A stretch of DNA of 47,314 nt from Candidatus Phoenicimicrobium oleiphilum (GCA_039638295.1 JBDIWJ010000009.1:1-47314), one strand, 5' to 3'. Positions 101-47,014 are shown, numbered from the stretch's first letter. Program-made: numbers and translations. Notes: generated from the sequence alone by a model not told the origin.

Positions 101-212
101 AGAATTAAAATCAAATTGGTTAACTGTATCAATTAACTCTCACCTTGCAACTTTTTTCTATACGCTATACAATACTCTTTACGAGATACAATTCACGAGA
201 TACAAATTATTC

Positions 213-241
213 TTGCTTAAATAAAGAAAAAATATTATAAT
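213..241 (+). promoter_or_regulatory. sigma70-type promoter for the tup/moa operon
   Basis: TTGCTT-N17-TATAAT just upstream of the riboswitch. Confidence 0.6.
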
Positions 242-284
242 AATTGAAAATATTTATTACTTATCGTTCTTTTATAAAAAAAAT

Positions 285-382
285 ATTCTCCGAGCTATTA
301 CACCTAAAGTAAAAATGATGGTGGATTAGCCGATAGGGAATGAGAGGAAACTCTTATTCCTCCCGTGTTTGGAAAGGAGGAT
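285..382 (+). ncRNA. Moco RNA motif riboswitch, P3-less (Tuco, tungsten-cofactor type)
   Basis: CTCCGAGC...ACCTAA...GGT...GCCGAT-AGGG..GAG-GAAA-CTC..CCTCCCG-TGTTT-GGAAAGGAG; P1, P2, P4, P5 present, P3 absent; lies upstream of tupA. Confidence 0.88.
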
Positions 383-405
383 TGATATTATGAGTTAAAC
401 TTATT

Positions 406-436
406 AACCAACACCAAACACAGTGTTGGTTTTTTT
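406..436 (+). terminator. Intrinsic terminator forming the riboswitch expression platform
   Basis: AACCAACAC/GTGTTGGTT stem followed by a T-run, between aptamer and tupA RBS. Confidence 0.75.
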
Positions 437-482
437 GTTTGAATGGTTTTAAATTTAATTAAAAGAAAGGAAAGAAAAATCA

Positions 483-1301
483 ATGAAAAGAAATATTATT
501 TTTAAGGCAGTATTTTTATTTGCCATTAGTATGATATTAATTAATTCAGTTTATGCCAGCCCTATTCACCTAAAATTAGCCACTACTACCAGTACAGAAA
601 ATTCAGGGTTGCTGGGAGTTTTGTTGCCTCCTTTTGAAGAAAAATATAATATTAAGGTTGATGTTATTGCGGTTGGTACAGGCAAAGCTATTAAATTAGG
701 AGAAAATGGAGATGTAGATGTTATATTAGTTCATGCTCGAGAAGCAGAAGATAAGTTTATTGAAGAGGGTTTTGGAGTAAATCGTAGAGATGTTATGTAT
801 AATGATTTTATTATCCTTGGACCATCTGATGACCCTGCGAAGATTAAGGATGAAAGCAATATAGTTTTAGTTTTAAAAAAGATTGCTAATTGTGGTGCTT
901 ATTTTGTTTCTCGGGGTGATGATTCTGGGACTCACAAAAAAGAAAAGAGTTTATGGCAAAAGGCAGGAATTGCTCCAGAAGGGGAATGGTATATGGAAAT
1001 TGGGCAAGGGATGGGGGTGACTTTACAGATTGCTGATGAAAGACAAGCTTATGTCCTTTGTGATAGAGGTACATTTTTAGCCTACAAGGGTAAGATAGAT
1101 TTAATTATTCTCTCCGAAGGAGATCCTCTACTCTTTAATCCCTATGGCATAATGGCAGTTAATCCCGCTCGTTATAACCAGGTTAAATATATGGAAGCAA
1201 TGCAATTAATTGCCTGGGTAACTTCAGTGGAAGGTCAGAAAATAATTGGAGAATATAAGAAAGAAGGAGAAATTCTTTTTTATCCAATGGCAATTGAATA
1301 G
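483..1301 (+). CDS. tupA: Tungstate ABC transporter substrate-binding protein
   Basis: Signal peptide; LATTTSTENSGLL (TTTS tungstate signature), GTGKA, SRGDDSGTH. Confidence 0.93.
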   Translation: MKRNIIFKAVFLFAISMILINSVYASPIHLKLATTTSTENSGLLGVLLPPFEEKYNIKVDVIAVGTGKAIKLGENGDVDVILVHAREAEDKFIEEGFGVNRRDVMYNDFIILGPSDDPAKIKDESNIVLVLKKIANCGAYFVSRGDDSGTHKKEKSLWQKAGIAPEGEWYMEIGQGMGVTLQIADERQAYVLCDRGTFLAYKGKIDLIILSEGDPLLFNPYGIMAVNPARYNQVKYMEAMQLIAWVTSVEGQKIIGEYKKEGEILFYPMAIE

Positions 1302-1532
1302 TCATTAGCATAGAATTAGCGTATAGGGGGTAGCGTTTAGCGTATAGAAAAACAGTAACATGTCCTTCGGCCTGATCGGGGAGCAGGAATCTAGGGCAGT
1401 TCTATCTACATATATAAATTAAATTAACTAGCAAACTGGTTAACTGGATAACTAATACATACGAGATACTGGTTTTTGACGCTATACTCTATACGCAATA
1501 CCCGATACGAATTTATTTATTGAGGTGCTATT

Positions 1533-2225
1533 TTGGATTTTATTATCGAAGGAGTACGAAAAGCCTTTCAATTGATTTTTTCTTTAGATAGAGAAATATT
1601 TAATATAGTCTTACTTTCACTAAGAATCTCTTTAACTGCTATAATACTGGCTTCGTTTCTAGGTATACCCCTGGGATTTTTAATAGGGGTAAAGGATTAT
1701 TGGGGGAAGAAATTTACTATAGCTTTAGTGAATACTCTGTTAGCCCTACCTACAGTAGTGGTAGGATTAATAGTTTATTCTGTAATTTCTCGCAGAGGGC
1801 CATTAGGAGTCTTTGGTTTACTGTACACTCCTTCTGCTATGATTATCGGTCAATTTATTTTAGCTACCCCTATTATTATTGCTCTTACTCATTCAGCAAT
1901 ACAGGGAATCGATAGAAGAGCGAGAAGTACTGCTTTGACTCTGGGAGCAACAGAAATTCAATCTGCCTGGACAGTGATTAAAGAAGCTCGCTATGCGGTG
2001 ATAGCTGCAGTAATTACTGGATTTGGAAGAATAATTGCTGAAGTAGGAGCTGCTATGATGTTGGGAGGGAATATTAGAGGGACTACTCGAGTTATGACCA
2101 CAGCCATTGCCCTCGAGACTTCCAAAGGAGAGTTTGGTTTTGGTATTGCTCTGGGAATTATTTTATTATTTATTGCTTTTAGCATAAATATTTTACTACA
2201 TTATTTTCAAAGTAAGAAAGTTTAA
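1533..2225 (+). CDS. tupB: Tungstate ABC transporter permease
   Basis: Hydrophobic; LPTVVVGL, FGRIIAEVGAAMMLGGNIRGTTRVMTTAI; TTG start with GAGGTG RBS. Confidence 0.92.
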   Translation: MDFIIEGVRKAFQLIFSLDREIFNIVLLSLRISLTAIILASFLGIPLGFLIGVKDYWGKKFTIALVNTLLALPTVVVGLIVYSVISRRGPLGVFGLLYTPSAMIIGQFILATPIIIALTHSAIQGIDRRARSTALTLGATEIQSAWTVIKEARYAVIAAVITGFGRIIAEVGAAMMLGGNIRGTTRVMTTAIALETSKGEFGFGIALGIILLFIAFSINILLHYFQSKKV

Positions 2226-2234
2226 ATATAAAAT

Positions 2235-3251
2235 ATGAATAAAACAATACTTAAAATTAGAAATATAAAAAAGATCTATAATAATAAAACAGTATTAGAT
2301 GTTGATTGTTTAGATTTTCAAGAGGGTAAAATTTATGCCATTGTAGGCCCAAATGGGTCAGGCAAAACTACTTTGCTTAATATTTTAAATTTATTAGAGA
2401 ATCCAGATGAAGGTCAGACATTTTTTTATGGTCAAGAAATTAATTATAAGTCAAATTATCATATTTTAGGAATTCGACGACAGATGACTTTGGTAAATCA
2501 GAATCCTTTCTTATTTCATTCCACAGTCTATGATAATATTGCTTATGGATTAAAAATAAGAGGAATACCGTCTAAAATTCAGCAAAATAGAGTCAGAAAT
2601 GCTTTAAGTATGGTAGGACTCTCTGGTTTTGAAAAGAGAAAAGTTAATCAATTATCAGGGGGAGAAGCTCAGCGAGTAGTAATTGCCAGGGCTTTGGTGA
2701 TAGAACCAAAAATTCTTTTTTTAGATGAACCTACTGCAAATATAGACCAAAGACATATAGATGTAGTAGAAAGAATTATTAAAAAAGTAAATAAGGAGAC
2801 TAAAACAACTATAATATTTACTACTCATGACCTTTCCCAGGCCTATCGTTTAGCTGATGAGGTAGTATCTTTTTTAGAAGGCAAAATAATTAAAGAAGTT
2901 CCAGAAAATATTCTTCGGGGAGAAATAATAGAAAAAGATGGTTTAAAATGGTTTAAAGTTGCAAAAGATATAAAGATAGCTATAGTGACTGAAAAAGTTG
3001 GAATGGCATATATTTATATCGACCCCAAAGATATAATCTTGTCTTATCAGCGGTTTCAATCAAGTGCCAGAAATTCATTTTCGGGGAGAATAATAAAGAT
3101 TGCCGAGAAAAATCATTTAATAAAATTGGAAGTAGATGTAGGTGTCAACTTAGTAACCATTATTACCCGAGAATCATTTCAAGATATGAATCTCAATTTA
3201 GGAAGCAAAGTTTACTTAACTTTTAAAGCTTCAGCAGTAAAACTTTATTAA
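2235..3251 (+). CDS. tupC: Tungstate ABC transporter ATPase with C-terminal TOBE domain
   Basis: GPNGSGKTT, LSGGEAQR, LDEPT; C-terminal SSARN...FKASAV TOBE. Confidence 0.88.
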   Translation: MNKTILKIRNIKKIYNNKTVLDVDCLDFQEGKIYAIVGPNGSGKTTLLNILNLLENPDEGQTFFYGQEINYKSNYHILGIRRQMTLVNQNPFLFHSTVYDNIAYGLKIRGIPSKIQQNRVRNALSMVGLSGFEKRKVNQLSGGEAQRVVIARALVIEPKILFLDEPTANIDQRHIDVVERIIKKVNKETKTTIIFTTHDLSQAYRLADEVVSFLEGKIIKEVPENILRGEIIEKDGLKWFKVAKDIKIAIVTEKVGMAYIYIDPKDIILSYQRFQSSARNSFSGRIIKIAEKNHLIKLEVDVGVNLVTIITRESFQDMNLNLGSKVYLTFKASAVKLY

Positions 3252-3267
3252 TTTTAAGAAAATATAA

Positions 3268-3377
3268 TGATTGAAATCCAAAAAAGTAGACAAAATGGTA
3301 AGGTAAGGGCATGATGCATCGTGTCTACAGGAGAAATTAGGCAATAATATGGCGAGGGCACAATTCATTGTGCAAAC
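3268..3377 (-). repeat. Degenerate GTAG-type REP doublet (REPIN), inverted paralog of 38927-39035
   Basis: Reverse complement GCACAATGAATTGTGCCCTCGCCATATTATT...ACACGATGCATCATGCCCTTAC aligns with the 38927 copy including its flank. Confidence 0.75.
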
Positions 3378-3378
3378 A

Positions 3379-3417
3379 TAGGGGTTTCAGAGGGAGTTTG
3401 CTCTCCTGATAATCTTG
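3379..3417 (+). repeat. Right half of the CAAGATTGTCAGG inverted-repeat element
   Basis: GGGGTTTCAGAGGGAGTTTGCTCTCCTGATAATCTTG matches the 3' halves of the four full copies. Confidence 0.7.
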
Positions 3418-3464
3418 GAAAATAACATGTTTAAACAATTAATAATAGGAGATGAATAGCTAAT

Positions 3465-4721
3465 ATGGCAAAACCTTTATTTAAAGTTAGTACCCCCCAA
3501 GAAGTAATTAGAGAATTAAAGAATCATTTAAATTTAAAGGAGATTATAAAGAACAATATAGAAATAATTGATATTAAAGATTCCCTGGATAGAGTCTTGG
3601 CTGAAGAAATTATCCCTCCTTGTAATCTACCAGGTTTTACTCGTTCAACAATGGATGGTTATGCTCTTAGGGCGGAGGATTCTTTTGGAGCGACTGAGAG
3701 TCTCCCTTCATATTTGAGACTTATAGGAGAAATAAAAATGGGCAAAAGACCCGAACTTAAGATCAATCGTGGAGAAGCAGTAAAAATTTCTACTGGTGGA
3801 ATGTTACCAGAAGGTGCGAATGCAGTAATAATGTGGGAATACACTTCTAAGATTGATGATACCACTATTGAGTTACGGAAGCCAGTTGCGCCAGGAGAGA
3901 ATATATTACGAGAAGATGAGGATCTAAAGGCGGGAGAGGTCTTATTAAAAGAAGGTCATAAATTACGGCCCCAAGATATAGGAGTATTGGCTGGGATAGG
4001 GAAGGTAAAAGTAAAGGTTTTTAAGAAACCTCGAGTAGCGATTATTTCAACGGGTAATGAAGTTATTCCTCCTCAGGATGAGCCACAAATAGGAGAAGTA
4101 AGAGATATAAATTCTTATACTCTTGGTGCTTGTGTAAAAAAGGCAAATGGGATTCCTATATACAGCGGAATTGTTAAAGATGAAGCCAATTTTCTCGAAC
4201 AAGAGATAAGAAAATCTATAGAAAAAGATAAAGTAGAGGTAGTAATCATATCTGGAGGGAGTTCGATGGGGACTAGAGATATCACTCTTGAGGTCCTTAG
4301 TAAATTAGGAAAGCCAGGAGTGTTGGTTCATGGTGTATCTGTAAAACCAGGGAAACCTACTATAGTTGCCATAGTGGATAATAAACCCATATTTGGCTTA
4401 CCAGGTCATCCAGTTTCAGCTATGATTATATTTAGTCTCTTTGTCCAACCATTGATAAGTTGGTTACAAGGAGGAGATTATAATGATGATTTTCACCAAA
4501 AAATTGAGGCTGAACTTATTTGTAATGTAGTATCAGATCCTGGACGGGAGGACTATATTAGAGTCGTTTTGTGGAAAGAGAATGGTAAATTTTATGCTAA
4601 GCCGATTTTAGGAAAATCAGGATTAATCTCTACAATGGTTCACGCTTCAGGTTTAGTAAAAATTGGATTAAACATAGAAGGACTAAAAAAAGGTAACAAA
4701 GTAATGGTCAAATTATTTTAA
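3465..4721 (+). CDS. moeA: Molybdopterin molybdo/tungstotransferase MoeA
   Basis: RSTMDGYA, ISTGGMLPEGANAV, ISTGNE, SGGSSMG, KPGKP, GLPGHPVS. Confidence 0.93.
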   Translation: MAKPLFKVSTPQEVIRELKNHLNLKEIIKNNIEIIDIKDSLDRVLAEEIIPPCNLPGFTRSTMDGYALRAEDSFGATESLPSYLRLIGEIKMGKRPELKINRGEAVKISTGGMLPEGANAVIMWEYTSKIDDTTIELRKPVAPGENILREDEDLKAGEVLLKEGHKLRPQDIGVLAGIGKVKVKVFKKPRVAIISTGNEVIPPQDEPQIGEVRDINSYTLGACVKKANGIPIYSGIVKDEANFLEQEIRKSIEKDKVEVVIISGGSSMGTRDITLEVLSKLGKPGVLVHGVSVKPGKPTIVAIVDNKPIFGLPGHPVSAMIIFSLFVQPLISWLQGGDYNDDFHQKIEAELICNVVSDPGREDYIRVVLWKENGKFYAKPILGKSGLISTMVHASGLVKIGLNIEGLKKGNKVMVKLF

Positions 4722-4957
4722 TATATCGAGCCAAAAGCTTAAATTAAAAAGCGAAAAATCCTATTCGTATCTCGTATCTCTTATGTATTAGTTATCTGGT
4801 TACCCGGTTTGCCAGTTAAGGATTAGTTAACCAGTCATCAGTAAGAAGGGTGTATAGCAATACGCCTCTACTTACTGAAAACTGTAAACTAAAACTTGTT
4901 TTAATACTAGCGACTAACAACTATTCACTAAAGACTAAATAAGGGGGAGAAACTGAT

Positions 4958-7962: not shown

Positions 7963-7966
7963 TAAA

Positions 7967-8452: not shown

Positions 8453-8510
8453 GCAAGATTAAGTGAACAACAATTAAAAGTGAACCAAAAAGATAGGGGA
8501 TGGAATATAA

Positions 8511-9468: not shown

Positions 9469-9475
9469 GTGATAG

Positions 9476-10423: not shown

Positions 10424-10573
10424 AATATGGAATTATGGATTGTAAAAATAAAAAACTTGAAATATATTAATTTTTGAGTTATTCTTTATGTTAACAATAT
10501 TTCTGCCTTATTGCCTTCAATATTTACGAGGATATTATAAGTAATATCTATAATAAAAGGAGGAAGATTTAAA

Positions 10574-10759
10574 ATGAAAGTAGTAATTGATAAAGATCTA
10601 TGCACGGGATGTGGACTTTGTGAGGATACTTGCCCCGAAGTTTTTGAGGTTAAAGATGGGGTAGCAACATTAAAAGTTAGTAAGGTACCAGATGACTTAA
10701 TCGAATCATGTAAAGAGGCTGCTGATGGTTGCCCAGTAGAAGCTATAACCTGTGAATAA
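10574..10759 (+). CDS. Single-cluster [4Fe-4S] ferredoxin
   Basis: CTGCGLC...CPEVF...CPVEAI; AGGAGG RBS. Confidence 0.92.
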   Translation: MKVVIDKDLCTGCGLCEDTCPEVFEVKDGVATLKVSKVPDDLIESCKEAADGCPVEAITCE

Positions 10760-10780
10760 GAAAAAGAAAATAAAATATAT

Positions 10781-10823
10781 AAATAAAAAAGAGCAGATTA
10801 ATCGAATCTGTTCTTTTTTATTT
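10781..10823 (+). terminator. Intrinsic (possibly bidirectional) terminator
   Basis: AAAAAAGAGCAGATT/AATCTGTTCTTTTTT stem with A- and T-tracts. Confidence 0.8.
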
Positions 10824-10911
10824 TAGCAATGTTAGTTCCCCTCCCAAGTTCTCATTTAATTTAAAAAGATAAGATGCAAATAAAATGAGAACTTGAGTTG
10901 CTTACCAGCAT

Positions 10912-10944
10912 AATGTTGACAATAATAGTCATAAATAATATAAT
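10912..10944 (+). promoter_or_regulatory. Consensus sigma70 promoter overlapped by an IscR type-1-like operator
   Basis: TTGACA(10916)-N17-TATAAT(10939); TGAC-N7-GTCA dyad over the -35. Confidence 0.72.
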
Positions 10945-10999
10945 TTCCTAGTAAAGTGAAGAAGTTTATGTTAAATATTATTTAAAAGGAGAAAGAACT

Positions 11000-14377: not shown

Positions 14378-14472
14378 CAAGATTATCAGGAAAAGTTTTA
14401 TATAAAATCGAAATGGAGTAAAAAAGAGATAGAGAGAGGTTTTGCGGGGAGTTTACTCCCCTGACAATCTTG
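14378..14472 (+). repeat. ~95 bp inverted-repeat-bounded element, copy 1
   Basis: CAAGATTATCAGG...GGGAGTTTACTCCC-CTGACAATCTTG. Confidence 0.85.
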
Positions 14473-16875: not shown

Positions 16876-16975
16876 GCAAGTTTGCCAGGGTCAAGAAAGG
16901 TATTTTATAAAACCCAAAAGAAATAACAAAAGGCATAAGGATTTCAAAGGGAGTTTACCTCCATGACAATCTTGC
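16876..16975 (+). repeat. Inverted-repeat-bounded element, copy 2
   Basis: GCAAGTTTGCCAGGG...GGGAGTTTACCTCCATGACAATCTTGC. Confidence 0.78.
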
Positions 16976-19230: not shown

Positions 19231-19650
19231 ATTCGTATATCGTATGTAGTATATCGTGATGAATAGGGTGGTGTATATAGCGTTTAGGGCATTAGATATA
19301 GTGATGAGTAATAAGTAATGAGTAATAAGTAATAAATAATAAGAAAAGAAAGTTGGCAGGTTAATGTTACCTGGTTAATTGGTTAAGAAAATAAAAGATA
19401 AAAATTAGCAGTCGGGAACCAAAATTTAGAATCCATTATTCAGAATTACTTTCTAACCCAGCTAAATAAATGTAATTGAAGAATTGATATTAAACTAATT
19501 AACTAACAAACCAATTGACTAGCTAACCAAGTACTAACGACTATCCACTATCGAATATATTAACTGGCTAACCGGGTAACTGGTAAACTGGATAACTAAT
19601 GTAAATGGTTAATTGGTAAATTGGAGAATTGGAGAATTGGTTAATTAGAA
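19231..19650. repeat. Modular 7/8-mer intergenic mosaic repeat
   Basis: TATCGTA, TAGCGTT, (AGTAATR)n, TTGAAGAATTGATATTAAAC, ACTAACGACTA, (AACTGGNT)n, (AATTGGAG)n modules. Confidence 0.8.
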
Positions 19651-19920: not shown

Positions 19921-20023
19921 AATTTTAAAAAACAATCGGGCAATCAGAAGTCAGAATATAATCGTATGGGGTACGCAATACGCTATACGATATAAGAACG
20001 ACTAAAAAAGAGGTTTTAATCAA

Positions 20024-23025: not shown

Positions 23026-23127
23026 GTATCTCGTATTTAATTAGATAGTTGATTGGTTACCTGGTTAGTTAGTTGAAGAATTAATATAAACTAACTAACC
23101 AGCTAACTAAGCAACCAACTAACGATG
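23026..23127. repeat. Modular palindromic element with a perfect 14 bp inner stem
   Basis: CTGGTTAGTTAGTT-GAAGAATTAATATA-AACTAACTAACCAG (23061-23102). Confidence 0.8.
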
Positions 23128-23439: not shown

Positions 23440-23532
23440 CAAGATTGTCAGGGAAGGTATCGTATAAAACTGAAAAGAAACAACCAAAGGCATAATAGGA
23501 TTTTAGAGGGAGTTTACTTCCCTACAATTTTG
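23440..23532 (+). repeat. Inverted-repeat-bounded element, copy 3
   Basis: CAAGATTGTCAGGG...GGGAGTTTACTTCCCTACAATTTTG. Confidence 0.8.
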
Positions 23533-23572
23533 AGAAATAAGAAAGTTAAATTAAAAAACTATTATAATACGA

Positions 23573-25919: not shown

Positions 25920-26052
25920 GTAATTAGTCGTTAGTGAATAGTCGATAGTATTAGTACAGCGTTTAGCGTATAGGATAAATCAATAAGCTTAAAGCTAAAA
26001 GCCATAATTAAAACTTAAAACTTTTTTGTATTTCAAATAAAGTATTTTTTTA

Positions 26053-26112
26053 ATGTAGGGGTCGGATTTATCCGACCCGTGTTTACGGGCTTGATAAATC
26101 AAGCTCCTACAT
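26053..26112. repeat. GTAG-type REP doublet
   Basis: GTAGGGGTCGGATTTATCCGACCC...GGGCTTGATAAATCAAGCTCCTAC. Confidence 0.8.
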
Positions 26113-26325
26113 CTGTCATTCCCATAAAATTTGCAATTTTCAACTTATTACTTATTACCGTATTTTAACTGGCCAACTAACTAAATGTGAGATACGATTC
26201 ACGAGATATGATTGATATGTTTGTTTTTATTTAAAAATTATGTTAAAATTATTTTGCGATAAGCTTATTAATATTAAAGTATATCAAAAATATTATAATA
26301 AAAGGAGAAGTTATTCTTAGATAAG

Positions 26326-28200: not shown

Positions 28201-28453
28201 TTAGACGTTAGTGAATAGTAGATAGTATATAGCGAAAAACAAAAAGTGCAAAACAAAATTTTTATCTTGAGCAAAATACATTAAAACGAGTAATATGTAA
28301 TGTGTAATAATGTTTAATAAGGAAAGAGTTAGATAGTTAGCGCTAGTTAGCTATTTGAGGAGTAAATATATTGAAGAACTAATATAAACCAATTAACCAA
28401 TAAATCAGTTATCTAGGCAACCAATTACCAACGACTATTTACAAATCACTAAG
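28201..28453. repeat. Modular intergenic element, paralog of 34471-34748
   Basis: Shared TAGTGAATAGT..TATATAGCGAAAAACRAAAAGTRCAAAACWAAATT; right arm AACGACTATT. Confidence 0.75.
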
Positions 28454-28470: not shown

Positions 28471-28683
28471 ATGGAAAAGGAAGATGTTAAACGAGAAAAA
28501 GAAGAAGATAAAGAAGAAGTAGAGAAGAAAAAGAAGGAAGAGTGGCTTAAAAAAGAGAAGATAAGGATGATCGAACAAAGAAAAGAATATATGAGTTACA
28601 TAAAAGGAGTAATGCGGAAAAAAGGGTTTAATCCAAAATTAAAAAAGGATAAATTTTTAGGTGGAGTGAGAGGAAGAGGATAA
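28471..28683 (+). CDS. Small highly charged hypothetical protein
   Basis: 70 aa, GAGAGGTG RBS, Lys/Glu-rich N-terminus, basic GGVRGRG tail. Confidence 0.6.
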   Translation: MEKEDVKREKEEDKEEVEKKKKEEWLKKEKIRMIEQRKEYMSYIKGVMRKKGFNPKLKKDKFLGGVRGRG

Positions 28684-34470: not shown

Positions 34471-34748
34471 ATAGTCGTTAGTTAATAGTGAATAGTATAT
34501 AGCGAAAAACGAAAAGTACAAAACTAAATTCGTTTCTTGCATTATGCAGATAGAATTAGTAATGAGTGATATGTAATAGGTGATAAGTTAATATTGTTTA
34601 GTTTATAGTTAATAATTGCAAGTTACAAGTTTGCAGACAGGAGTTGGAGAGGTAGGGGCATGGTGTTGCTAGATTAACTGGTAAACCGGCTAACTGGTAA
34701 ACTGGGCAACTAAATACTAACGACTATTCACTAACAACTAACGAATAT
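34471..34748. repeat. Modular element closed by 26 bp terminal inverted repeats
   Basis: ATAGTCGTTAGTTAATAGTGAATAGT vs ACTATTCACTAACAACTAACGAATAT (23/26 complementary). Confidence 0.85.
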
Positions 34749-37577: not shown

Positions 37578-37669
37578 CAAGATTGTCAGGAAAAGTTTTA
37601 TATGAAATCGAAATGGAGTAAAAGGGAGATAGAGGGATTTCAGGGGAGTCTACCACCCCGACAATCTTG
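37578..37669 (+). repeat. Inverted-repeat-bounded element, copy 4 (closest to copy 1)
   Basis: CAAGATTGTCAGGAAAAGTTTTATATGAAATCGAAATGGAGTAAAA...CCCGACAATCTTG. Confidence 0.85.
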
Positions 37670-37699
37670 AAAAAATAATAATAAGGAAGGGGAAATAAA

Positions 37700-38800: not shown

Positions 38801-38926
38801 CTAAAGTATAATTAATTAAATATATAGTTATTTTCCAAAAAGCCAAAAATATTTTCAAAATATTATATGTATGGTATGCTAAAGATAATATTATAGCAAA
38901 TTATAATTTTTGGTTATAATTAAGTT

Positions 38927-39000
38927 GTAGGGGCACAATGAATTGTGCCCTAGCCATATTATTTAATTTATCCTTGGGGCACAATACATCGTGCCCCTAC
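38927..39000. repeat. GTAG-type REP doublet (REPIN)
   Basis: GTAGGGGCACAATGAATTGTGCCC...GGGGCACAATACATCGTGCCCCTAC. Confidence 0.85.
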
Positions 39001-39111
39001 ATTAACATTTTGTTTGCTTTTATAGGTTGCAATCAAAATAATACACTATTATATATATTTACAATTTTTAAAAAACAACATTATTAATGGGTTATGATAA
39101 ATGAGTGAAAT

Positions 39112-40599
39112 ATGAAATATGAACTATCAGTAAAACAAAAACAAAAACTAATTCTTACTCCCCAGTTGTATCAGGCAATAAATATATTACAATTGAATTT
39201 AGTAGAATTAAGAAATTTAATTGATAAAGAACTGGTAGAAAATCCTTTATTAGAAGTTAATCAAGTGGTAAATTCTGAAGCAGAAAATGTAATCCAGAAG
39301 GAAAATTCTAATAGCAAAATTGAAAATAAAGACGAAAATGCGGAAGAAAATAACTTTAAGGATTGGCTAAGTTATCTGGAGGAAAAAGGCAATCAACCCT
39401 TTTTAGAAAAATCAATTTTGAAAAAGGAAAATAGTTTCGAGAATTTTATTCATTATGGAGAATCATTACAAGATTATTTATTAATTCAATTAGGTATGAC
39501 TGTAAACAATAACATAGATTACAAGATTGGCGAGTATTTAATAGGCAATATTGATGATAATGGTTATTTGACTATTAGTTTAGAAGATATTTCTCATGAC
39601 CTGAATGTAAAAATAGATAAAATAGAAGAAATATTATTTTTAATTCAAAGTTTTGATCCACCCGGAGTTGGAGCAAGAAACTTAGAAGAATGTTTATTGA
39701 TTCAAGCAAAATATCTGGGTATTAATGATGTCCATATAGAGAAGATAATAAAAGACCATTTAGATGATTTAGCTCGAAAAGCATATCAAAAAATTGCTAA
39801 AGATTTGGAAATATCAGTTTCTGGAATTCAATCTTTAGCTGATATAATCAAAAAAAGCTTTGATCCCAAACCAGGGAGGAGAATAGATAATTTAAAGGAA
39901 ACTAAATATATTATTCCGGATTTAACCCTAATAAGGGAGGAGGGCGGTAGGTATAGATTACTTCTGAATGAGGATTATTTACCTCAAATAAAGATAAATC
40001 CTTTATATAAAAAATATTTATGTTTAGATAATATTAAATCTCCAGAGGGTATTGAAGAATTAGTCGGTAGAAAAGATATTTCTGGTCACGAAACTAAAGA
40101 CACTATTGAATATGTTAAAGAAAAATTGCAATCAGCGAGGTCTTTGATTAAAGGGATAGAACAAAGAAAAAAAACCATATATCGGATTGCAGAGATTTTA
40201 ATAGATTACCAAAAAGAATTTTTAGATAAAGGTATTTTATATATTAGACCTCTATCTTTAAAAGAAGTTGCAGATAAGTTAGGTATTCACGAATCTACTG
40301 TATCCAGGGCGATTCATAATAAAATTATTCAAACTCCACGGGGAGTTTTTAAAATGAAATTTTTCTTTTCTAAAGGAGTAAATACAAAAGGGGGAGATAT
40401 TGTTTCTACTGACAAAGTAAGAAGATTAATAAAAGAGTTTATTGAGAAGGAAAATCCTTTAAAACCTTGGAGTGATCAAAAATTAACAGAGTTATTGAGT
40501 AAGAAAGAGAAGATAAAAATCTCCCGGCGAACAGTTACTAAATATCGGGAGATGTTAAAAATACCATCTTCTAATATGCGTAAAAGATTTGATATTTAG
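39112..40599 (+). CDS. rpoN: RNA polymerase sigma-54 factor
   Basis: Gln/Leu-rich region I, DPPGVGARNL.ECL, HESTVSRA, RpoN box SRRTVTKYRE. Confidence 0.95.
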   Translation: MKYELSVKQKQKLILTPQLYQAINILQLNLVELRNLIDKELVENPLLEVNQVVNSEAENVIQKENSNSKIENKDENAEENNFKDWLSYLEEKGNQPFLEKSILKKENSFENFIHYGESLQDYLLIQLGMTVNNNIDYKIGEYLIGNIDDNGYLTISLEDISHDLNVKIDKIEEILFLIQSFDPPGVGARNLEECLLIQAKYLGINDVHIEKIIKDHLDDLARKAYQKIAKDLEISVSGIQSLADIIKKSFDPKPGRRIDNLKETKYIIPDLTLIREEGGRYRLLLNEDYLPQIKINPLYKKYLCLDNIKSPEGIEELVGRKDISGHETKDTIEYVKEKLQSARSLIKGIEQRKKTIYRIAEILIDYQKEFLDKGILYIRPLSLKEVADKLGIHESTVSRAIHNKIIQTPRGVFKMKFFFSKGVNTKGGDIVSTDKVRRLIKEFIEKENPLKPWSDQKLTELLSKKEKIKISRRTVTKYREMLKIPSSNMRKRFDI

Positions 40600-40703
40600 T
40601 TAACTGGTTATTTGGTTAATAAATCAATATCAAACAGGTTAACGCACTATCTAACCAGGAACTAGTTAACCAGCTACCCAAAAAGTACTAATTAAAAAAA
40701 TAA

Positions 40704-41711
<1,008 letters not shown>

Positions 41712-41719
41712 AAAATATA

Positions 41720-41920
41720 GTATCTCGTTAAGATGGTTAGCTAGTTAGCTAGTATACCGGTTATCTGGTTTAAGAATTAAATTATTTCTATTAAATGTAT
41801 CGAGTATCTCTAATCTTTTAACTTGAGAACTTGTATTTGGAATTAACGAATAAAATTAACTGGTTAAATGGCAAACGGGGTAACTGGGTAACTATTATAT
41901 ACGAGATACGAATAACGAAT
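41720..41920. repeat. Modular palindromic element filling the gap-tpiA spacer
   Basis: GTATCTCGT..(TAGTTAGC/CTGGTT)n left arm; (AACTGGGT)n..ACGAGATAC right arm. Confidence 0.78.
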
Positions 41921-41943
41921 CAATCAATTGGAGGGTTAAAAGA

Positions 41944-42705: not shown

Positions 42706-42914
42706 AATTAACATAAACTTTTTTATAATTTCCCCTGCTTTCGCAGGGGCAGGCCTCGTAAAATATGTACTCATAAAAATGAGTAATGGGGGATACGAAA
42801 TAAGAGTATTTATCTTGAAGTTAAAATATAATTGTGTTAAAATAAAAATCCAAAATTCAAACTAAAGAAAAAATATATAAATTGCGAAGAAATAATTAGT
42901 AAAGGAGCTATAAG

Positions 42915-43139
42915 ATGTCTACTGTATTAATGTCTATTCAAATTATAATAAGTATAGCTTTAATTTTGACAGTAATACTTCAACAAAGAAAATCAAGCAG
43001 AGCTTCAGGTATATTTGGTGGAGGAACAACTGCTGACTATGGAGGGAAGAAAGGTAGGGAAGCATTTTTAATAAAGCTTACTGCTATTGTAGCCATACTT
43101 TTTATGTTATCTTCTCTCTTACTTAGCTTAATTAAATAA
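42915..43139 (+). CDS. secG: Preprotein translocase subunit SecG
   Basis: Two TM helices with ILQQ..SG.FGGG loop; follows tpiA. Confidence 0.88.
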   Translation: MSTVLMSIQIIISIALILTVILQQRKSSRASGIFGGGTTADYGGKKGREAFLIKLTAIVAILFMLSSLLLSLIK

Positions 43140-43163
43140 ATAGAAGGAATTACTTTATTTAGA

Positions 43164-44201
43164 ATGAATAAACCTATTAGTTCAATTGATGAAATCGAGA
43201 ATTATTTTATAAATTCAGAGAGAAAATTTTTTTCAGCTACTCACGAAGAAATTGAAAGAGGGTTAACCAGTGACATATATTTCGTGAGAGCTCAAGAAAT
43301 ATTAAGATATCTCCAGTTAGAGAGTACTGTAGTAACGGCAGAGATTTTCCCCCGAGAAGGGGGTATATTTGCTGGCACCAAAGAAGTTTATAATCTTCTA
43401 AAAGATAAGAAGATAAAATTGTGGTCTTTAGAAGAAGGGGAAGAGTTCCATTTTAAGGACACAGTAATGAGAATTGAGGGTCCTTATTCTGAATTTGGTG
43501 TTTTTGAAACTGTTATTTTAGGGATTTTAGCCAGTAGTTCAGCGTGGGCTACTGCAGCGCGTGAATGTAAAGATGCTGCTGGAGGGAAAAAGGTCCTCTG
43601 TTTTGGTTCTCGACATATTCACCCTGCTGTAGCGCCAGTTATGGAAAGGGCAGCTCTAATAGGTGGAGTAGATGGAGCAAGTTGTATATTGGGTGCAAAA
43701 CTATCAGGGAGAAAACCCCAAGGAACTATCCCTCACACCGTAATGATTATTTCTAAAGATACCGTAAAAGCCGCACTTGCTTATAATGTTAGTATGCCTA
43801 AAGATGTTCCCCGAGTTATTCTTATCGATACTTTTAAGGATGAAGCAGAAGAATCTATAAGGGTAGCTCGGGCTTTAGGAAAAGATTTATCGGGTGTGAG
43901 GTTAGATACCCCAAGTGAGAGAGGTGGAGTAACTCCAGATTTAGTAAAAGAAGTAAGAGTAAGATTAAATCAAGCTGGATTTCCTGAGGTAAAAATCTTC
44001 GTTTCAGGTGGTCTTACTCCAGAAAGGATCAGCATATTAAGTAAAGAACAGGTTGAGGCTTTTGGGGTAGGTAGTTATATAAGTGATGCCAGTCCCATTG
44101 ATATGACTCTGGATATAAAGGAAGTTGAGGGGAAGCCTATTGCCAAGAGAGGGAGAATCCCTGGGAAAATAGAAAATAATAAATTAAAACGAATGATATA
44201 A
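43164..44201 (+). CDS. pncB: Nicotinate phosphoribosyltransferase (short, Thermoplasma-like type)
   Basis: SDIYF, FGSRH.HP, GTIPH, VRLDTPS.RGG, SGGL, GVGS, AKRG. Confidence 0.85.
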   Translation: MNKPISSIDEIENYFINSERKFFSATHEEIERGLTSDIYFVRAQEILRYLQLESTVVTAEIFPREGGIFAGTKEVYNLLKDKKIKLWSLEEGEEFHFKDTVMRIEGPYSEFGVFETVILGILASSSAWATAARECKDAAGGKKVLCFGSRHIHPAVAPVMERAALIGGVDGASCILGAKLSGRKPQGTIPHTVMIISKDTVKAALAYNVSMPKDVPRVILIDTFKDEAEESIRVARALGKDLSGVRLDTPSERGGVTPDLVKEVRVRLNQAGFPEVKIFVSGGLTPERISILSKEQVEAFGVGSYISDASPIDMTLDIKEVEGKPIAKRGRIPGKIENNKLKRMI

Positions 44202-44232
44202 AAAGTAAATTTGTATCGGAGGAAAAAATTAT

Positions 44233-45261
44233 ATGGGAAAAATACTACTGCAGGTTAAGGGCTTAAAAACTTATTTTTATACTGATGATGGTGTAGTTAA
44301 GGCAGTTGATGGTGTTGATTTTACCATTAGAAAAGGGGAAACTCTGGGTATGGTTGGTGAATCAGGATGTGGCAAAAGTGTTTCTGCCCTTTCCATACTG
44401 CGATTGATTCAAGAGCCTCCAGGGAAAATTATTGATGGTGAGATTTGGTTTAAAGGGGAAGATTTATTAAAGAAAAGTCCTGAACAAATGAGAAAGATTA
44501 GAGGGAATGATATCTCAATGATCTTTCAAGAACCGATGACCTCCTTAAATCCTGTCTATACTATAGGTGAACAGATTTCAGAAGCTATAATACTCCATCA
44601 GAAATTAGATAAAGAAAAGGCCCTAAAGAAAACTGTGGAGATGTTAAGACTGGTAGGTATACCTACTCCCGAAACTAGAGTTCATGAATATCCTCATGAA
44701 TTAAGCGGAGGACAAAGGCAGAGGGCAATGATTGCTATGGCTTTATCTTGTAATCCAGATTTATTAATTGCAGATGAACCCACAACCGCTTTAGATGTTA
44801 CTATACAAGCTCAGATTTTAGAACTGATAAAGAAATTGAAAGATGAAATTGGTATGTCAGTTTTGATGATTACCCATGACTTAGGAGTAATTGCTGAAGT
44901 GTCGGATAATGTAGTAGTGGTATATGCTGGTAAAGCGGTAGAGTATGCAGATGTGGTGAGTATTTTTAAGAATCCCCGACATCCCTATACTATGGCTCTC
45001 CAAAATTCTATTCCTCGTCTAACAGATAAACAGGGGAAAAAACTGGATGCTATCCAGGGTGGAATTCCTGATCCTTTGGCCTTGCCCTCTGGATGCAAGT
45101 TTCATCCTCGTTGTAAGTTTGCCATAGATCTTTGTAAAAAAGAAGAACCAGAACTTGAAAAGATAGAAGATAACCATATTGTACGGTGTTGGATATACAA
45201 TAAAGATAAGGCAAAAGAATTTAAAGTCAAGCAAGAAGTGGTAAGTATAACCCAAGAGTAA
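44233..45261 (+). CDS. oppD: Oligopeptide ABC transporter ATPase
   Basis: [30 protein letters not shown], Cys-rich C-terminus. Confidence 0.92.
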
Positions 45262-45294
45262 TAAATGCTAGAAAGAAAATAGGAGGAAAAAAGT

Positions 45295-46269
45295 TTGGAA
45301 AATAATATATTACTTAAAGTAAAAAATTTAAGAAAATATTTTCCAGTAAGAGGAGGAATATTCTCCAAGATAATAGGATATGTTCAGGCAGTAGATGGTA
45401 TAAGTTTCGATATTAAAAAGGGAGAAACCTTAGGCTTAGTAGGAGAATCAGGCTGTGGTAAAACTACTACGGGGAGAACAATTATCAGACTTTTAGAGCC
45501 TACTGCTGGAGAGGTTGATTTTGAAGGAGAAAATTTTTTTAAATTAAGCAAAGAAAAACTTAGAAAAGTCCGACGTAATATTCAAATTATATTCCAGGAT
45601 CCTTTTGGTTCTCTTAATCCCCGAATGACTGTTGGTGATATAGTGGGGGAATCATTACTTATCCATAACATAGTAAAGAACAATAAAGAAAAAGAGGAAA
45701 TAGTTAAGGATTTGTTAGAAACTGTAGGCTTAAATGCTGGACATATAAGAAGATATCCTCATGAGTTCAGTGGGGGGCAGAGACAGAGAATTGGGATAGC
45801 TCGGGCATTGGCTCTGAGACCTAAATTAGTAATTTGTGATGAACCTGTATCTGCACTCGATGTTTCTATCCAAGCTCAAGTTATAAACTTATTAGAAGAA
45901 TTGCAAGAGAAATTCCACCTTACTTACTTATTTATTGCCCATGATTTAAGTGTGGTAAAACATATTTCTAATAGAGTTGCCGTAATGTATCTGGGAAAGA
46001 TTGTTGAATTAGCTTCTACTTATGAATTATATGAAAACCCTCAGCACCCTTATACAAAGGCGCTTCTTTCTGCAGTTCCTATCCCTGATCCAACCTTAAA
46101 GAGGCAAAGAATTGTTTTAGATGGAGATGTTCCCAGTCCCTTTAAACCTCCGACAGGTTGTCGTTTTCATCCGAGATGTAAATATATTAAACCAATTTGT
46201 AGACAGGAAGAACCTAAATTAATTGATATAAATGGTGGACATTATGTAGCCTGTCATTTAGAAAGATAA
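45295..46269 (+). CDS. oppF: Oligopeptide ABC transporter ATPase
   Basis: [44 protein letters not shown]. Confidence 0.92.
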
Positions 46270-46312
46270 AAGGACACAAAGTACAGTAGAGTTTTGTTTA
46301 GTTTAATAAATT

Positions 46313-46400
46313 GCCGGGATGGCGGAATAGGTAGACGCGCCAGCTTGAGGGGCTGGTGAGCATATTGCTTGTGGGGGTTCAAATCCCCCTCCCGGCACCA
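46313..46400 (+). tRNA. tRNA-Leu(GAG)
   Basis: CCAGC-TTGAGGG-GCTGG, long variable arm, CCA end. Confidence 0.94.
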
Positions 46401-46407
46401 ATAAATA

Positions 46408-46451
46408 TTTCAGCAAAAAGAGGAAGTTATCACTTCCTCTTTTTGCTGAAA
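46408..46451 (+). terminator. Long perfect hairpin after tRNA-Leu
   Basis: TTTCAGCAAAAAGAGGAAGT/ACTTCCTCTTTTTGCTGAAA. Confidence 0.7.
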
Positions 46452-46519
46452 GTTAATTAGTTGTCCGGTGACTTTTTTAAGAAATAAATTGACTAACTAA
46501 CCAAATTCAGGAAAAAAAT

Positions 46520-46861
46520 ATGCATGAAGCTTCGATTGTTCAAAATCTATTAGAAGTTGCTTTAGAGAAAGCTAAAGATTATAAAGCAAATAAAATAACT
46601 CTTATTCGAATAAAAGTAGGAGAATTTGCTGGCGTGAATCAAGAGGCTTTAAAGTTTGCTTTTGAAAATTTTACTAAACAGACTATTGCAGAAAAAGCAT
46701 CTTTGCAGATAATACCGTCTCCTTTATTAGGAAAATGCCAAGAGTGTGATGAAGTTTTTGAGATTACAAAAAATAGTTTTAAATGTTCAAAATGTAATAG
46801 CCTGAAGATAGATATAATTTCTGGGCAGGATTTGTATATTCAGGACATTGAAATAGAATAA
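46520..46861 (+). CDS. hypA: Hydrogenase maturation nickel metallochaperone
   Basis: MHE N-terminus, CxxC...CxxC, SG.DL.I..IE. Confidence 0.95.
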   Translation: MHEASIVQNLLEVALEKAKDYKANKITLIRIKVGEFAGVNQEALKFAFENFTKQTIAEKASLQIIPSPLLGKCQECDEVFEITKNSFKCSKCNSLKIDIISGQDLYIQDIEIE

Positions 46862-47014
46862 ATTGTTTAATTTTTTAAAAAAATACTTTACAACTAATAA
46901 AACAAAATGGTATAATTTTCTCTGTTAATTTAATTGTAGAAGAATTTCCTATTTTTGCAATTTTTCTGTTTATAGGGGGAATTCACTAACGACTAATTTA
47001 AGAGAGGTGAAGTA

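Follow-up and report, generated by a model that had tools for sequence, protein, structure and literature searches.

Tandem heptamers are known from several bacterial settings. Coxiella burnetii's 23S intervening sequence (IVS), as described by Warrier et al. (2016, PMC4990558), carries an S23p open reading frame (ORF) with tandem heptamers upstream of it and has terminal inverted repeats, with RNase III cutting within the stem. Intergenic heptamers include STRR in heterocystous cyanobacteria, GGGGA(T/C)T in Nostoc and GGGAATC in Xanthomonas, where 70-75 convergent pairs could form stem-loops; array length varies among relatives, the type is kept and function is given as unknown (Rehm et al., 2015, PMC4692102). 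TAACTGA direct repeats, patchily distributed across phyla (marine Beggiatoaceae, cyanobacteria and Bacteroidetes), are nearly all intergenic and mostly in one orientation, a few nucleotides upstream of start codons; they were proposed to be sites for a translational regulator, and the account of the repeats ties them to no cassette or gene (MacGregor, 2015, PMC4679880). Geobacter metallireducens has four- and five-fold tandem heptanucleotide elements at dozens of dispersed sites (Aklujkar et al., 2009, PMC2700814). Arrays of heptamers between genes, arrays paired in inverted orientation and heptamers in 23S IVSs have therefore been published already (PMC4692102, PMC4679880, PMC4990558), and an earlier, sequence-only reading that called the repeats described below undescribed holds only for their link to four-helix-bundle cassettes: in the literature searched, we found no paper joining gene-less heptamer arrays to such cassettes.

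The window, a 47,314-nucleotide stretch of the Candidatus Phoenicimicrobium oleiphilum genome, includes 13 spacers that had been singled out as built from tandem 7- and 8-nucleotide modules. Eleven of the 13 contain arrays with a period of 7 or 8, as judged from TRF together with the spacer sequences; TRF reported no array in 115-205, 46450-46505 or 46981-46996, which hold single module words. Among 218,823 intergenic and 1,359,769 coding 7-mers across the whole genome, CGTTAGT was counted 121 and 30 times, respectively (24-fold enriched between genes), TAGTCGT 125 and 43 times (18-fold), TCGTATC 112 and 54 times (13-fold), TAGCGTA 61 and 29 times (13-fold) and TCTCGTA 76 and 79 times (6-fold). 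An 18-mer of module words, TAGTCGTTAGTGAATAGT, occurs with at most two mismatches at 11-172 copies per genome in 18/18 same-family genomes, against 0-1 matches per genome for the reversed-pattern control, and in 3/12 genomes of the sister family; it is conserved across 7 genera. The proposed arrays are thus real, and their module words are shown to be strongly intergenic and family-wide.

The suggested kinship with cyanobacterial STRR elements fell away. STRRs consist of three canonical heptamer units in tandem and belong to heterocystous cyanobacteria; this organism is an uncultured member of the Atribacterota, and its genome has 0 tandem copies of each heptamer taken as an STRR unit or of GGGAATC. 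Like the heptamers of Rehm et al. (PMC4692102), tandem 7-mers are concentrated between genes here, but the units differ and several types are mixed and layered in one spacer; the treatment of the repeats in that paper favours G-quadruplexes, without mention there of four-helix-bundle genes. The TAACTGG/AACTG right arms resemble TAACTGA in their placement upstream of start codons, yet TAACTGA was described as direct repeats with one inverted set only (PMC4679880), and exact TAACTGA in tandem has 0 copies in this genome. The Geobacter elements also comprise four to five tandem heptamers of unknown function, some drawn as two-stranded loops, but those units are GC-rich, occur within genes too and were read as regulator sites or RNA elements (PMC2700814). 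The individual spacers, all of them between protein or tRNA genes, are listed in Table 1 with the cassette genes found elsewhere in the genome.

Table 1. Repeat-bearing spacers of the window and four-helix-bundle loci of the same genome. Positions without a contig prefix are those of the window; z values compare folding energies with those of dinucleotide shuffles.
Location	Strand	Feature	Units and remarks	Folding
98-152 (in 98..205)	.	Partial conserved core of 180-nt hairpin family	nhmmer C9:98-152, E 3.6e-9	
98..205	.	Core copy and the part after it	After the core, words of the right arm alone (TACGCTA, TACGAGA, CACGAGA); left arm missing	z +0.6
1302..1512	.	modA-modB spacer	Left array TAGCGTA-type; right arrays AACTGG, TACGAGA, TACGC-type	MFE -50.7, shuffles -41.2; z -2.4
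4762..4940	.	moeA-moeA spacer	Left TCGTATC and CTGGTTA/CCAGTTA arrays; right AACTG and ACTAAC arrays	z -2.9; 0/40 shuffles as stable
19231..19650	.	lysS-S4 spacer	Composite of several arrays	Overall z +0.4
19601-19646	.	AATTGGnn array	Immediately ahead of S4-domain gene	
19960..20005	.	Short TCGTAT/TACGC hairpin and solo ACGACTA	Ahead of mgtE ribosome-binding site	z -5.1
23026..23127	.	Near-perfect hairpin after divIC-like gene	GGTTA/TAGTTAG against CTAACTAACC arrays	MFE -32.5, shuffles -14.5; z -6.4
25925..26210	.	hpt-ftsH spacer, layered	TAGTCGT/TAGTGAA outermost, next TAGCGTA, next AAGC-AAAAC-type module; centre GTAGGGG...CCTAC hairpin and GTCATTCC word; right arrays TATTACT, TAACTGG, CGAGATA	z -2.95
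28201..28453	.	Post-ftsH spacer	Left TAGACGT/TAGTGAA arm, AGCGAAAAAC module, GTAATA array; right ACCAAT and ACGACTA arm, ending ahead of 70-aa ORF	z -1.9; 2/40 shuffles as stable
34471..34748	.	argS-rapZ spacer	Left arm TAGTCGT/TAGTGAA; right arm TAACTGG and ACTAACGACTATTCACTAAC	z -5.4
40597..40690	.	rpoN-gap hairpin	CTGGTTA against TAACCAG units; overlaps rpoN stop codon	z -2.4
41715..41920	+	gap-tpi spacer, full copy of ~180-nt hairpin family	Arms GGTTAGCCAGTT... and ...AACTGGGTAAC; outer TCTCGT/ACGAGA units	z -5.3
41770-41855	+	Asymmetric ~90-nt core of gap-tpi copy		
46450..46505	.	Weak, short TTAGTTG...CTAACTAACC pair	After tRNA terminator	z -0.8, not beyond shuffles
46981..46996	.	Solo right arm TTCACTAACGACTAA	Immediately ahead of ribosome-binding site	
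C3:957-1316		Four-helix-bundle gene	TAGTATA arms	
C43:7674-8039		Four-helix-bundle gene	AGTCAGA-type arms	
C35		49-aa four-helix-bundle remnant	Between TAGTCGT/TAGTGAA and TTCACTA/ACGACTA	

The sequence-only reading was right on two further points, namely that such repeats flank TIGR02436-type four-helix-bundle genes and that the window has no such ORF. Two intact TIGR02436 genes, whose proteins also weakly match DGR Avd, and one remnant carry repeat arms in this genome, which has no intact gene with TAGTCGT arms. Relatives yielded 62 four-helix-bundle matches in 18/21 genomes, and the flanks of 19 of the 28 scored genes pair at z <= -3 against shuffles with a period of 7 or 8, their arm units being TAGTCGT/TAGTGAA, TCGTATC/GCGTAT, AGTAATA, TAGTATA, GGTTAGC/TAGTTAG, CCAATT/AATTGG and TAGCGTA. 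The 12-mers drawn from the arms that flank 26 genes of relatives have a density of 25.9 per kb in the window's spacers versus 4.8 per kb in coding DNA, and in the 13 named spacers left-arm words are split 57:9 between first and second half, right-arm words 10:55; by this test the window spacers share both units and order with gene-bearing cassettes. Within the window no TIGR02436/PF05635 gene was found, and six-frame peptides of the spacers held no detectable fragment of one (best E 0.87) or of a GIY-YIG protein (best E 0.79), so the window copies are at most gene-less derivatives.

Gene and arms behave as one unit. On the four-helix-bundle protein tree 12 changes, the fewest there can be, suffice to place the 13 arm classes, where label shuffles need 18-21 (10 listed of 200); the tree, as these sequences show, tracks arm type with no exception. 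Gene plus arms were copied as a block at two loci in one relative (94.3% identical) and at two in another (90.8%), the flanks being 40-45% identical in each case, and the homology stops where the arrays end on the outside, 5-9 nt past a stop codon and a few nt short of the following ribosome-binding site. Target-site duplications were visible neither at copied cassettes nor at dispersed hairpin copies. The cassette that is whole here between pilB and alaS is reduced in a same-genus relative, where all that is left is the 18-nt gene fragment GTATCAATTCCTGCTAAT, which matches the SIPAN-coding part at 18/18 positions, along with the 3' end of the gene and the arm on the right. Between these two genomes genes are 88-92% identical and spacers not alignable, and at argS-rapZ the same-genus relative has another spacer, of 137 nt, in which only a left arm is present; array turnover at orthologous sites is evidently much quicker than that of the genes on either side. 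Gene-less pieces are shown to be dispersed as well, both as hairpin units and as 200-nt array blocks: the 23026..23127 hairpin has full-length relatives in at least 10 other spacers, and 19411-19612 shares 93.6% identity with C65:2130-2331, whose flanks are unrelated.

We therefore favour, with some reserve, the reading that the window spacers are gene-less derivatives of IVS-type four-helix-bundle hairpin cassettes whose transcribed stems would probably be cut by RNase III. It agrees with the earlier suggestion of a non-autonomous element. As in the Coxiella IVS, a small TIGR02436-family ORF is enclosed by inverted repeats with adjoining tandem heptamers, and the ORF decays as the RNA part stays (PMC4990558). 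Terminal inverted repeats able to form a long stem, as in an IVS-type hairpin cassette, are present in the 8 of 13 spacers whose folds are more stable than those of 40 dinucleotide-shuffled versions (z -2.4 to -6.4); the expected folding advantage was thus borne out in these eight, fell to z -1.9 in 28201-28453, and was absent in 115-205, 19231-19650, 46450-46505 and 46981-46996. Unlike the Coxiella IVS, the cassettes occupy gaps that separate protein-coding genes and are not inserted in rRNA (the 23S rRNA gene is absent from the assembly, and no insertion in a 23S rRNA helix was found), their arms are long, degenerate multi-unit arrays, and most copies have no ORF. Most gene-less arrays probably arose from cassettes through gene loss, slippage and nested insertion; GIY-YIG genes bearing arms of their own lie inside such arrays. 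By looping the insert out of the operon's transcript, the stem would make insertions that fall between a stop codon and the following ribosome-binding site tolerable, and RNase III, whose gene is present (C13:29832-30494), would probably process the transcribed stem as in 23S rRNA intervening sequences; the Coxiella IVS stem is an RNase III substrate (PMC4990558). The direction from cassette to array is evident at two sites only, the same-genus pilB-alaS site and the remnant on C35.

Arrays might instead have come first, as slippage-prone repeats made by the host and retained for some role in cis, for example in starting translation or in punctuating or stabilising transcripts, with small selfish genes, four-helix-bundle and GIY-YIG, later homing into the hairpins and adopting their arms. 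We regard this as unlikely, though it accounts for several observations that count against gene-less relics. An AATTGGnn array stands ahead of the S4-domain gene in 16/17 orthologous lysS-S4 spacers across genera (judged by eye), a retention that looks like upkeep for a host function. Both arm kinds occur in 143 spacers of this genome, against two intact genes and one remnant, an excess of about 50 to 1. Arms are interchangeable between loci: a left arm gains little by pairing with the right arm of its own spacer instead of a foreign one (-26.1 versus -23.5 kcal/mol; own partner better in 46/84). Two unrelated cargo types sit in the same arrays, as GIY-YIG genes with arms of their own lie within them and the AGCGAAAAC and GTCATTCC modules of the hpt-ftsH spacer flank GIY-YIG genes elsewhere. 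The favoured reading is further weakened by outer left and right units that are frequently of different types; spacers lacking the 16 listed words also beat shuffles in folding (n=206, mean z -1.8), which makes them a weak control. The Beggiatoaceae TAACTGA repeats just upstream of start codons, with their proposed translational role (PMC4679880), fit an arrays-first origin too. Against it stand the joint, sharp-ended copying of gene and arms, the exact match of arm type to protein tree, the decay of a cassette to a solo arm seen directly, and orthologous sites without conserved array content: the lysS-S4 spacers of all 17 genomes have arrays, but units differ and lengths range over 54-423 nt.

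It is less probable still that the arrays are sense-strand RNA elements, selected for mRNA structure in an operon-internal processing or regulatory system and truly polar. The sequence-only reading leaned this way, claiming a strict strand polarity, one orientation just after the upstream stop and its reverse complement just before the downstream ribosome-binding site or promoter, that argued for selection on RNA structure or strand-specific propagation. All long ORFs in the window are on the + strand, which leaves no basis there for assessing polarity against gene direction. Genome-wide, forward words lie mostly in the first half of a spacer and complements mostly in the second. This order is strong for TAGTCGT (34:7, first:second half) and ACGACTA (5:55) and for TCGTATC (48:4) and GATACGA (10:33), weak for AGTAATA (36:21) and TATTACT (19:27), and absent for CTGGTTA (24:14) and TAACCAG (15:12) as well as for TGGTTAA and AAGTTAC; it is limited to the outer modules and not strict across the whole vocabulary. 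A word preceding its reverse complement (W...rcW) prevails in every spacer class (++ 65:10, -- 42:4, -+ 10:4, +- 7:1), divergent and convergent ones included. What looked like polarity is the invariant arrangement of an inverted repeat, unaffected by the direction of the flanking genes, and each unit type is shown to have a fixed 5'-arm or 3'-arm assignment independent of gene direction. Because an inverted repeat reads W...rcW on both strands, the order is uninformative about transcription and about any strand-specific mechanism; of the overall observation, the arrays stand and the strict polarity does not.

Placement and folding bear on the same alternative. Many arrays lie between a stop codon and the following ribosome-binding site, but the first left word is within 10 nt of the stop in only 42/111 spacers (median 23 nt) and the median distance from the end of the last right word to the start (crude start calls) is 50 nt, so the claimed abutment holds in part. 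Both-arm spacers are about equally common among divergent (14/69), convergent (8/68) and co-directional (121/845) gene pairs; co-directional spacers with right-arm words only number 81 and with left-arm words only 110 (16-word list, whole genome). The 77 array-bearing spacers beat shuffles (mean z -2.9), but sense and antisense RNAs do so equally (z -2.9 versus -3.2), and energies of -52.5 versus -48.2 are matched by the same gap in shuffles (-42.1 versus -37.6), hence no extra G-U signal. The asymmetric core of the ~180-nt hairpin family is biased to sense (19 versus 7 copies), yet the consensus fold of 21 copies has almost no covariation. RNA-library contigs bridge the rpoN-gap and gap-tpi spacers, in a library where DNA is not excluded. 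Rfam families at or above gathering score were only a Moco riboswitch and five tRNAs, with no hairpin among them; the sole matches of the hairpins at E <= 0.5 are to miRNA-precursor models, with scores well under the cut-offs of those models.

An ordinary MITE family moved in trans by an unrelated transposase, such as an HUH/Y1 enzyme acting on hairpins, is improbable to a slightly greater degree. Like MITEs and REP/BIME, the elements are short, gene-less, hairpin-forming, intergenic and multi-copy, with ends related to a gene-bearing element. The ~180-nt family with its conserved core has 13 copies here and 19 in 8 relatives, and the gap-tpi copy is 93% identical at the orthologous site of another genus. 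Inverted ends and dispersed copies are thus present, but no target-site duplication was seen and no cognate transposase found; the parent cassette has none, its ends are tandem 7/8-mers, and the arms are built of the units found in four-helix-bundle cassettes. Neither a transposase nor a reverse transcriptase was linked to arrays or cassettes, and RVT_1 was not found in the 91%-complete genome. The single Y1_Tnp gene (C23), RAYT-like, is flanked by its own AAAGGTGCCAGGCACCTTT hairpins, unlike the module words, and REP/BIME with RAYT was rejected accordingly.

Chance, or decaying microsatellites of separate origins, has in its favour the scarcity of homogeneous arrays (0-14 per unit type with at least 3 near-identical units) and weak spots such as 46450-46505, but is ruled out by the 6- to 24-fold intergenic enrichment, the reversed-pattern controls (0-1 matches against 11-172), the fixed word order and the 18-mer kept across 7 genera, and merits hardly any credence.

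Intergenic heptamer repeats and 23S rRNA intervening sequences were each known; what is new, as far as the literature found goes, is the proposed connection between them.

The heptamer arrays are a real, lineage-wide feature. Of the 13 intergenic spacers in which a sequence-only reading had placed them, 11 yielded arrays of period 7 or 8 in Tandem Repeats Finder, and the words named by that reading are visible in the sequences. Genome-wide, the module words are 6-24 times commoner in intergenic than in coding DNA, as divided by a crude prediction of 1,415 ORFs, which take up 83% of the genome. Allowing at most two mismatches, the 18-mer TAGTCGTTAGTGAATAGT has 91 copies in this genome and 11-172 copies per genome in all 18 same-family genomes (7 genera), against 0-1 matches for the reversed pattern used as a control; in the sister family it occurs in 3 of 12 genomes, at low copy number. 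The window is contig C9 of an assembly that comprises 1.65 Mb in 83 contigs and is 91% complete. The window has a GC content of about 33% and carries all its long ORFs on the + strand, and its lysyl-tRNA synthetase has its nearest homologues, at 75-82% identity, in Candidatus Atribacteria, uncultured Atribacterota and Candidatus Sediminicultor, with the next tier at about 55-58%. An ORF of 70 aa beside one of the arrays falls under our cut-off of 80 aa and may be a genuine small gene.

Selection on RNA structure had been proposed for these spacers. Compared with 40 dinucleotide shuffles, eight of the 13 folded clearly better, one was borderline and four had no advantage. Across the genome, 77 co-directional spacers with arrays had a mean fold z of -2.9, and spacers lacking the 16 module words had a mean of -1.8, the latter being a poor negative control because other hairpin elements lie inside them. 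Homogeneous arrays of each unit type were too few in the genome census to compare units with and without a resident gene, and no Rfam family fits the array hairpins.

The suspected tie to TIGR02436 four-helix-bundle genes held when we searched for array copies that enclose an ORF. This genome encodes two intact proteins of the family (119 and 121 aa, both with weak matches to the Avd protein of DGRs) and a 49-aa remnant, all three within heptamer arms, and the arms of the remnant are the most common outer module of the window. No four-helix-bundle fragment is detectable in the window, in agreement with the sequence-only reading. Among the relatives, 18 of 21 family genomes yielded 62 matches, about 15 of which have in-frame stops or cover less than three quarters of the model. 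Of 30 loci inspected, 28 had sufficient flank for scoring, and at 19 of these the upstream and downstream flanks pair at z <= -3 relative to shuffles, with a period of 7 or 8. A gene of this kind with its facing heptamer-array arms is called a cassette here.

The arms of these cassettes are homologous to the gene-less arrays of the window. Arm units in the relatives are the window vocabulary itself: TAGTCGT/TAGTGAA, TCGTATC/GCGTAT, TAGCGTA, AGTAATA, TAGTATA, GGTTAGC/TAGTTAG and CCAATT/AATTGG. Words of 12 nt drawn from the arms around 26 genes of relatives reach a density of 25.9 per kb in window spacers versus 4.8 per kb in coding DNA, where the matches are mostly A-rich low-complexity words; the test used 11-13-mers, 9-mers being uninformative in this AT-rich genome (49% of coding DNA 'covered'). 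Within the 13 spacers, left-arm words fall in the first and second halves at 57:9 and right-arm words at 10:55. A left arm pairs with its own right arm at -26.1 kcal/mol, with the right arms of other spacers at -23.5 and with other left arms at -19.3; left arms therefore accept foreign right arms almost as well as their own, indicating a vocabulary common to the whole genome.

The same order had earlier been read as strict strand polarity relative to transcription. Forward words do lie in the first half of the spacer, with their complements in the other half (TAGTCGT 34:7, ACGACTA 5:55, TCGTATC 48:4), but AGTAATA follows this order weakly and CTGGTTA, TGGTTAA and AAGTTAC do not follow it. As a transcription signal it fails: the arrangement of a forward word in the left arm and its reverse complement in the right is kept whatever the strands of the flanking genes (++ 65:10, -- 42:4, -+ 10:4, +- 7:1), and minus-strand genes show the same word order in contig coordinates, because an inverted repeat reads this way on either strand. 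The polarity argument was mistaken. Each unit type is found almost exclusively in this arrangement and not inside-out; this speaks for a shared ancestry in elements whose ends were defined, not for transcription. A comparison of sense and antisense folding gave no sense-specific signal of G-U pairing: sense RNA was 4.4 kcal/mol stabler, the shuffles behaved likewise (-42.1 versus -37.6), and the fold z was -2.9 for sense and -3.2 for antisense. The only asymmetric marker found was the core, about 90 nt long, of a family of hairpins of about 180 nt. Of the 11 co-directional copies of this core in this genome, 8 run in the sense of the genes on either side; in relatives 10 of 14 do so, plus one orthologous copy placed by hand. 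The total, 19 sense to 7 antisense over copies that are not independent, is a bias and not a rule. Folded as a consensus, 21 copies of this family give a near-empty structure (-2.6 kcal/mol), and unit slippage makes the alignment unfit for counts of covariation. The window region is present in three RNA-library runs as Logan contigs, which carry no information on RNA ends, strand or level; one library (X1) has even depth over everything and may contain DNA. At 34712-34744 and 41720-41897 these contigs show breaks and cross-joints that resemble assembly effects caused by repeats.

Gene and arms are copied as a unit. Two cassettes at separate loci of one relative (G018) are 94.3% identical across arms and gene, and two in another (G016) are 90.8% identical, while the flanks of both pairs are 40-45% identical. 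In an alignment of these four copies, homology begins and ends with the outer array edges, at 5-9 nt past the stop codon of the preceding gene and a few nt short of the following ribosome-binding site; no target-site duplication was seen. When 13 arm-unit classes, assigned by eye, were mapped on a tree of 26 proteins, 12 changes sufficed, as few as 13 classes allow, against 18-21 changes among the 10 listed of 200 label shuffles, a result that overstates independence because some of the rows are orthologous loci. Four-helix-bundle genes also occur in 15 of 20 sister-family genomes, so that the presence of the gene alone fails to explain why TAGTCGT arrays are limited to one family.

Decay from cassette to gene-less array is visible at two sites. 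At one of them, the gap from pilB to alaS, this genome has a complete cassette; the same-genus relative G001, whose flanking genes are 89-91% identical, retains only 18 nt of the SIPAN-coding gene core, identical at 18 of 18 positions, together with the last codons and the right arm. At the pilB-alaS site of another relative, G004, a GIY-YIG gene lies between GTCATTCCCGCGAAAGCGGGAAT hairpins, within AGCGAAAAAC.../...GTTTTTCGCT arms, within TAGCGTA arrays. Small GIY-YIG genes, nested in AGCGAAAAAC-type and heptamer arrays, are a second type of cargo in these spacers, and one is followed by at least seven tandem 21-mers. No GIY-YIG gene fragment is detectable in the window, and pieces of the outer modules of these genes are present in spacers 25925-26210, 28201-28453 and 34471-34748, and these spacers thus resemble layered sites at which small cassettes of more than one kind have landed.

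The arrays turn over fast. A check of orthologous spacers against G001 revealed that those between argS and rapZ, between gap and tpi and after ftsH differ in arrays and length, with genes 88-92% identical. The spacer between lysS and the S4-domain gene has arrays in all 17 genomes examined, at lengths of 54-423 nt and with differing units, and window 19411-19612 within it matches, at 93.6% identity, a block of contig C65 that lies in an unrelated spacer. Judged by eye, the AATTGGnn array before the S4-domain gene persists across genera, in 16 of 17 orthologous spacers (relatives' loci L011-L026), while the remaining spacer changes; this array may serve translation. The gap-tpi hairpin belongs to the 180-nt family, which has a conserved core and 13 copies in this genome and 19 in 8 of 20 relatives. 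The core of the gap-tpi copy is 93% identical to that at the orthologous site of G018, which is of another genus and has Gap and Tpi at 85% and 79% protein identity; the spacer of the same-genus G001 is nevertheless different. This likeness across genera suggests that the core either is strongly constrained or has been exchanged between lineages.

The single Y1 transposase gene has its own AAAGGTGCCAGGCACCTTT hairpins on both sides, unrelated to the heptamer modules. Neither a reverse transcriptase (PF00078) nor a GxxExxY gene (TIGR04256) was found in this 91% complete genome. The high-copy CAAGATTGTCAGG element, which has no Rfam match, is separate from the arrays, and the heptamer modules are not its building blocks. 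A REP-like hairpin (GTAGGGG...CCCCTAC) lies centrally in spacers, its word CGTGCCC (29x) is among the top enriched intergenic words, and its 26 pairs 50-80 nt apart enclose no gene in this genome.

Features of the window, the genome and its relatives, with coordinates where available
Feature	Location	Description
Intact four-helix-bundle gene 1 (C3:957-1316)		TAGTATA / TATACTA array arms
Intact four-helix-bundle gene 2		AGTCAGA-type / TCTGACT array arms
49-aa four-helix-bundle remnant		TAGTCGT/TAGTGAA + TTCACTA/ACGACTA arms
Small GIY-YIG genes	G000 (this genome) C3:13937-14161 and C2:85311-85532; G004 C103:3630-4336	First 104 aa; bracketed by GTCATTCCCGCGAAAGCGGGAAT hairpins
Y1_Tnp gene	G000 C23:17607-18491 (L047 1468-2352)	294 aa; IS200-like, RAYT-like
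CAAGATTGTCAGG ... GGGGAGTTTACTCCCC TGACAATCTTG element	window 14378-14472, 37578-37669; partial/degenerate ~3405, 16877-16974, 23440-23540	About 70 nt between 13-bp inverted ends, inner GC hairpin; 25-60 nt upstream of start codons or a tRNA; 8-37 other genomic matches per window interval; 142 end-words genome-wide
REP-like double hairpin GTAGGGGCACAATGAATTGTGCCC ... GGGGCACAATACATCGTGCCCCTAC	window 38927-39000; variant 26055-26125	GTAGGGG...CCCCTAC
gap-tpi core	window 41762-41862; L102 (G018:C144:474-569)	Orthologous sites
AATTGGnn 8-mer array	window 19601-19646	Directly upstream of S4-domain gene; GGAG words ~20 nt from ATG
70-aa ORF	window 28471-28683	Lys/Glu-rich, highly charged, with ribosome-binding site; adjoins right arm of spacer 28201-28453
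Stretch free of ORFs >=80 aa and of module arrays	window 10424-10999	576 nt
Moco (molybdenum/tungsten cofactor) riboswitch	window 276-395	87.7 bits; precedes modABC + moeA/moaA/moaC block
Housekeeping genes	window	mod, moa/moe, lysS, S4-domain gene, mgtE, eno, tilS-hpt-ftsH, opp, argS, rapZ, whiA, rpoN, gap, tpi

The window spacers are probably gene-less derivatives of hairpin cassettes carrying a four-helix-bundle gene of the intervening-sequence (IVS) type. Paired arms would loop the insert out of an operon transcript, and this would account for the survival of copies precisely in the gap from a stop codon to the ribosome-binding site that follows. The stem might then be cut by RNase III, for which this genome has a gene (C13:29832-30494), by analogy with the 23S IVS of Coxiella. 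There, RNase III cutting was shown in vitro and tandem heptamers precede the S23p ORF (PMC4990558), a likeness to the four-helix-bundle genes with heptamer arms seen here. Slippage, deletion and nested insertion could have produced the shuffled modules. Published work also describes over-represented heptamer repeats, with 70-75 convergent pairs in Xanthomonas (PMC4692102), TAACTGA arrays immediately 5′ of start codons (PMC4679880) and heptanucleotide elements in Geobacter (PMC2700814). Within a literature coverage that leaves subscription journals mostly outside and gives papers in part, we found none joining gene-less intergenic arrays to four-helix-bundle genes. A broader reading, tentative and in our judgement rather unlikely, is that four-helix-bundle (Avd-like) genes with heptamer arms form an undescribed and very widespread class of mobile hairpin cassette that inserts past a stop codon and ahead of the following ribosome-binding site, where arm pairing and excision from the transcript would make it harmless; much of what is known in bacteria as 'STRR-type' heptamer repeats between genes would be its gene-less progeny, and the exact match of protein clade to arm unit would mean that each protein recognises its own arms.

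To our knowledge, neither the heptamer repeats of intergenic DNA (STRR, long simple-sequence repeats, TAACTGA) nor the family of the '23S rRNA intervening-sequence protein' has found an explanation in decades. The arrays have practical consequences, in that they break metagenome assemblies (cross-joints between 34.7 kb and 41.9 kb) and inflate spacers within operons, and, because they evolve more quickly than genes, they could be used to mark strains of Atribacterota. In this genome family, heptamer repeats and the IVS-type protein come together in a single object whose passage from gene-bearing to gene-less forms can be seen, and the heptamer puzzle becomes a set of testable questions: whether the protein binds the arms, whether the stem is cut and what moves the unit.
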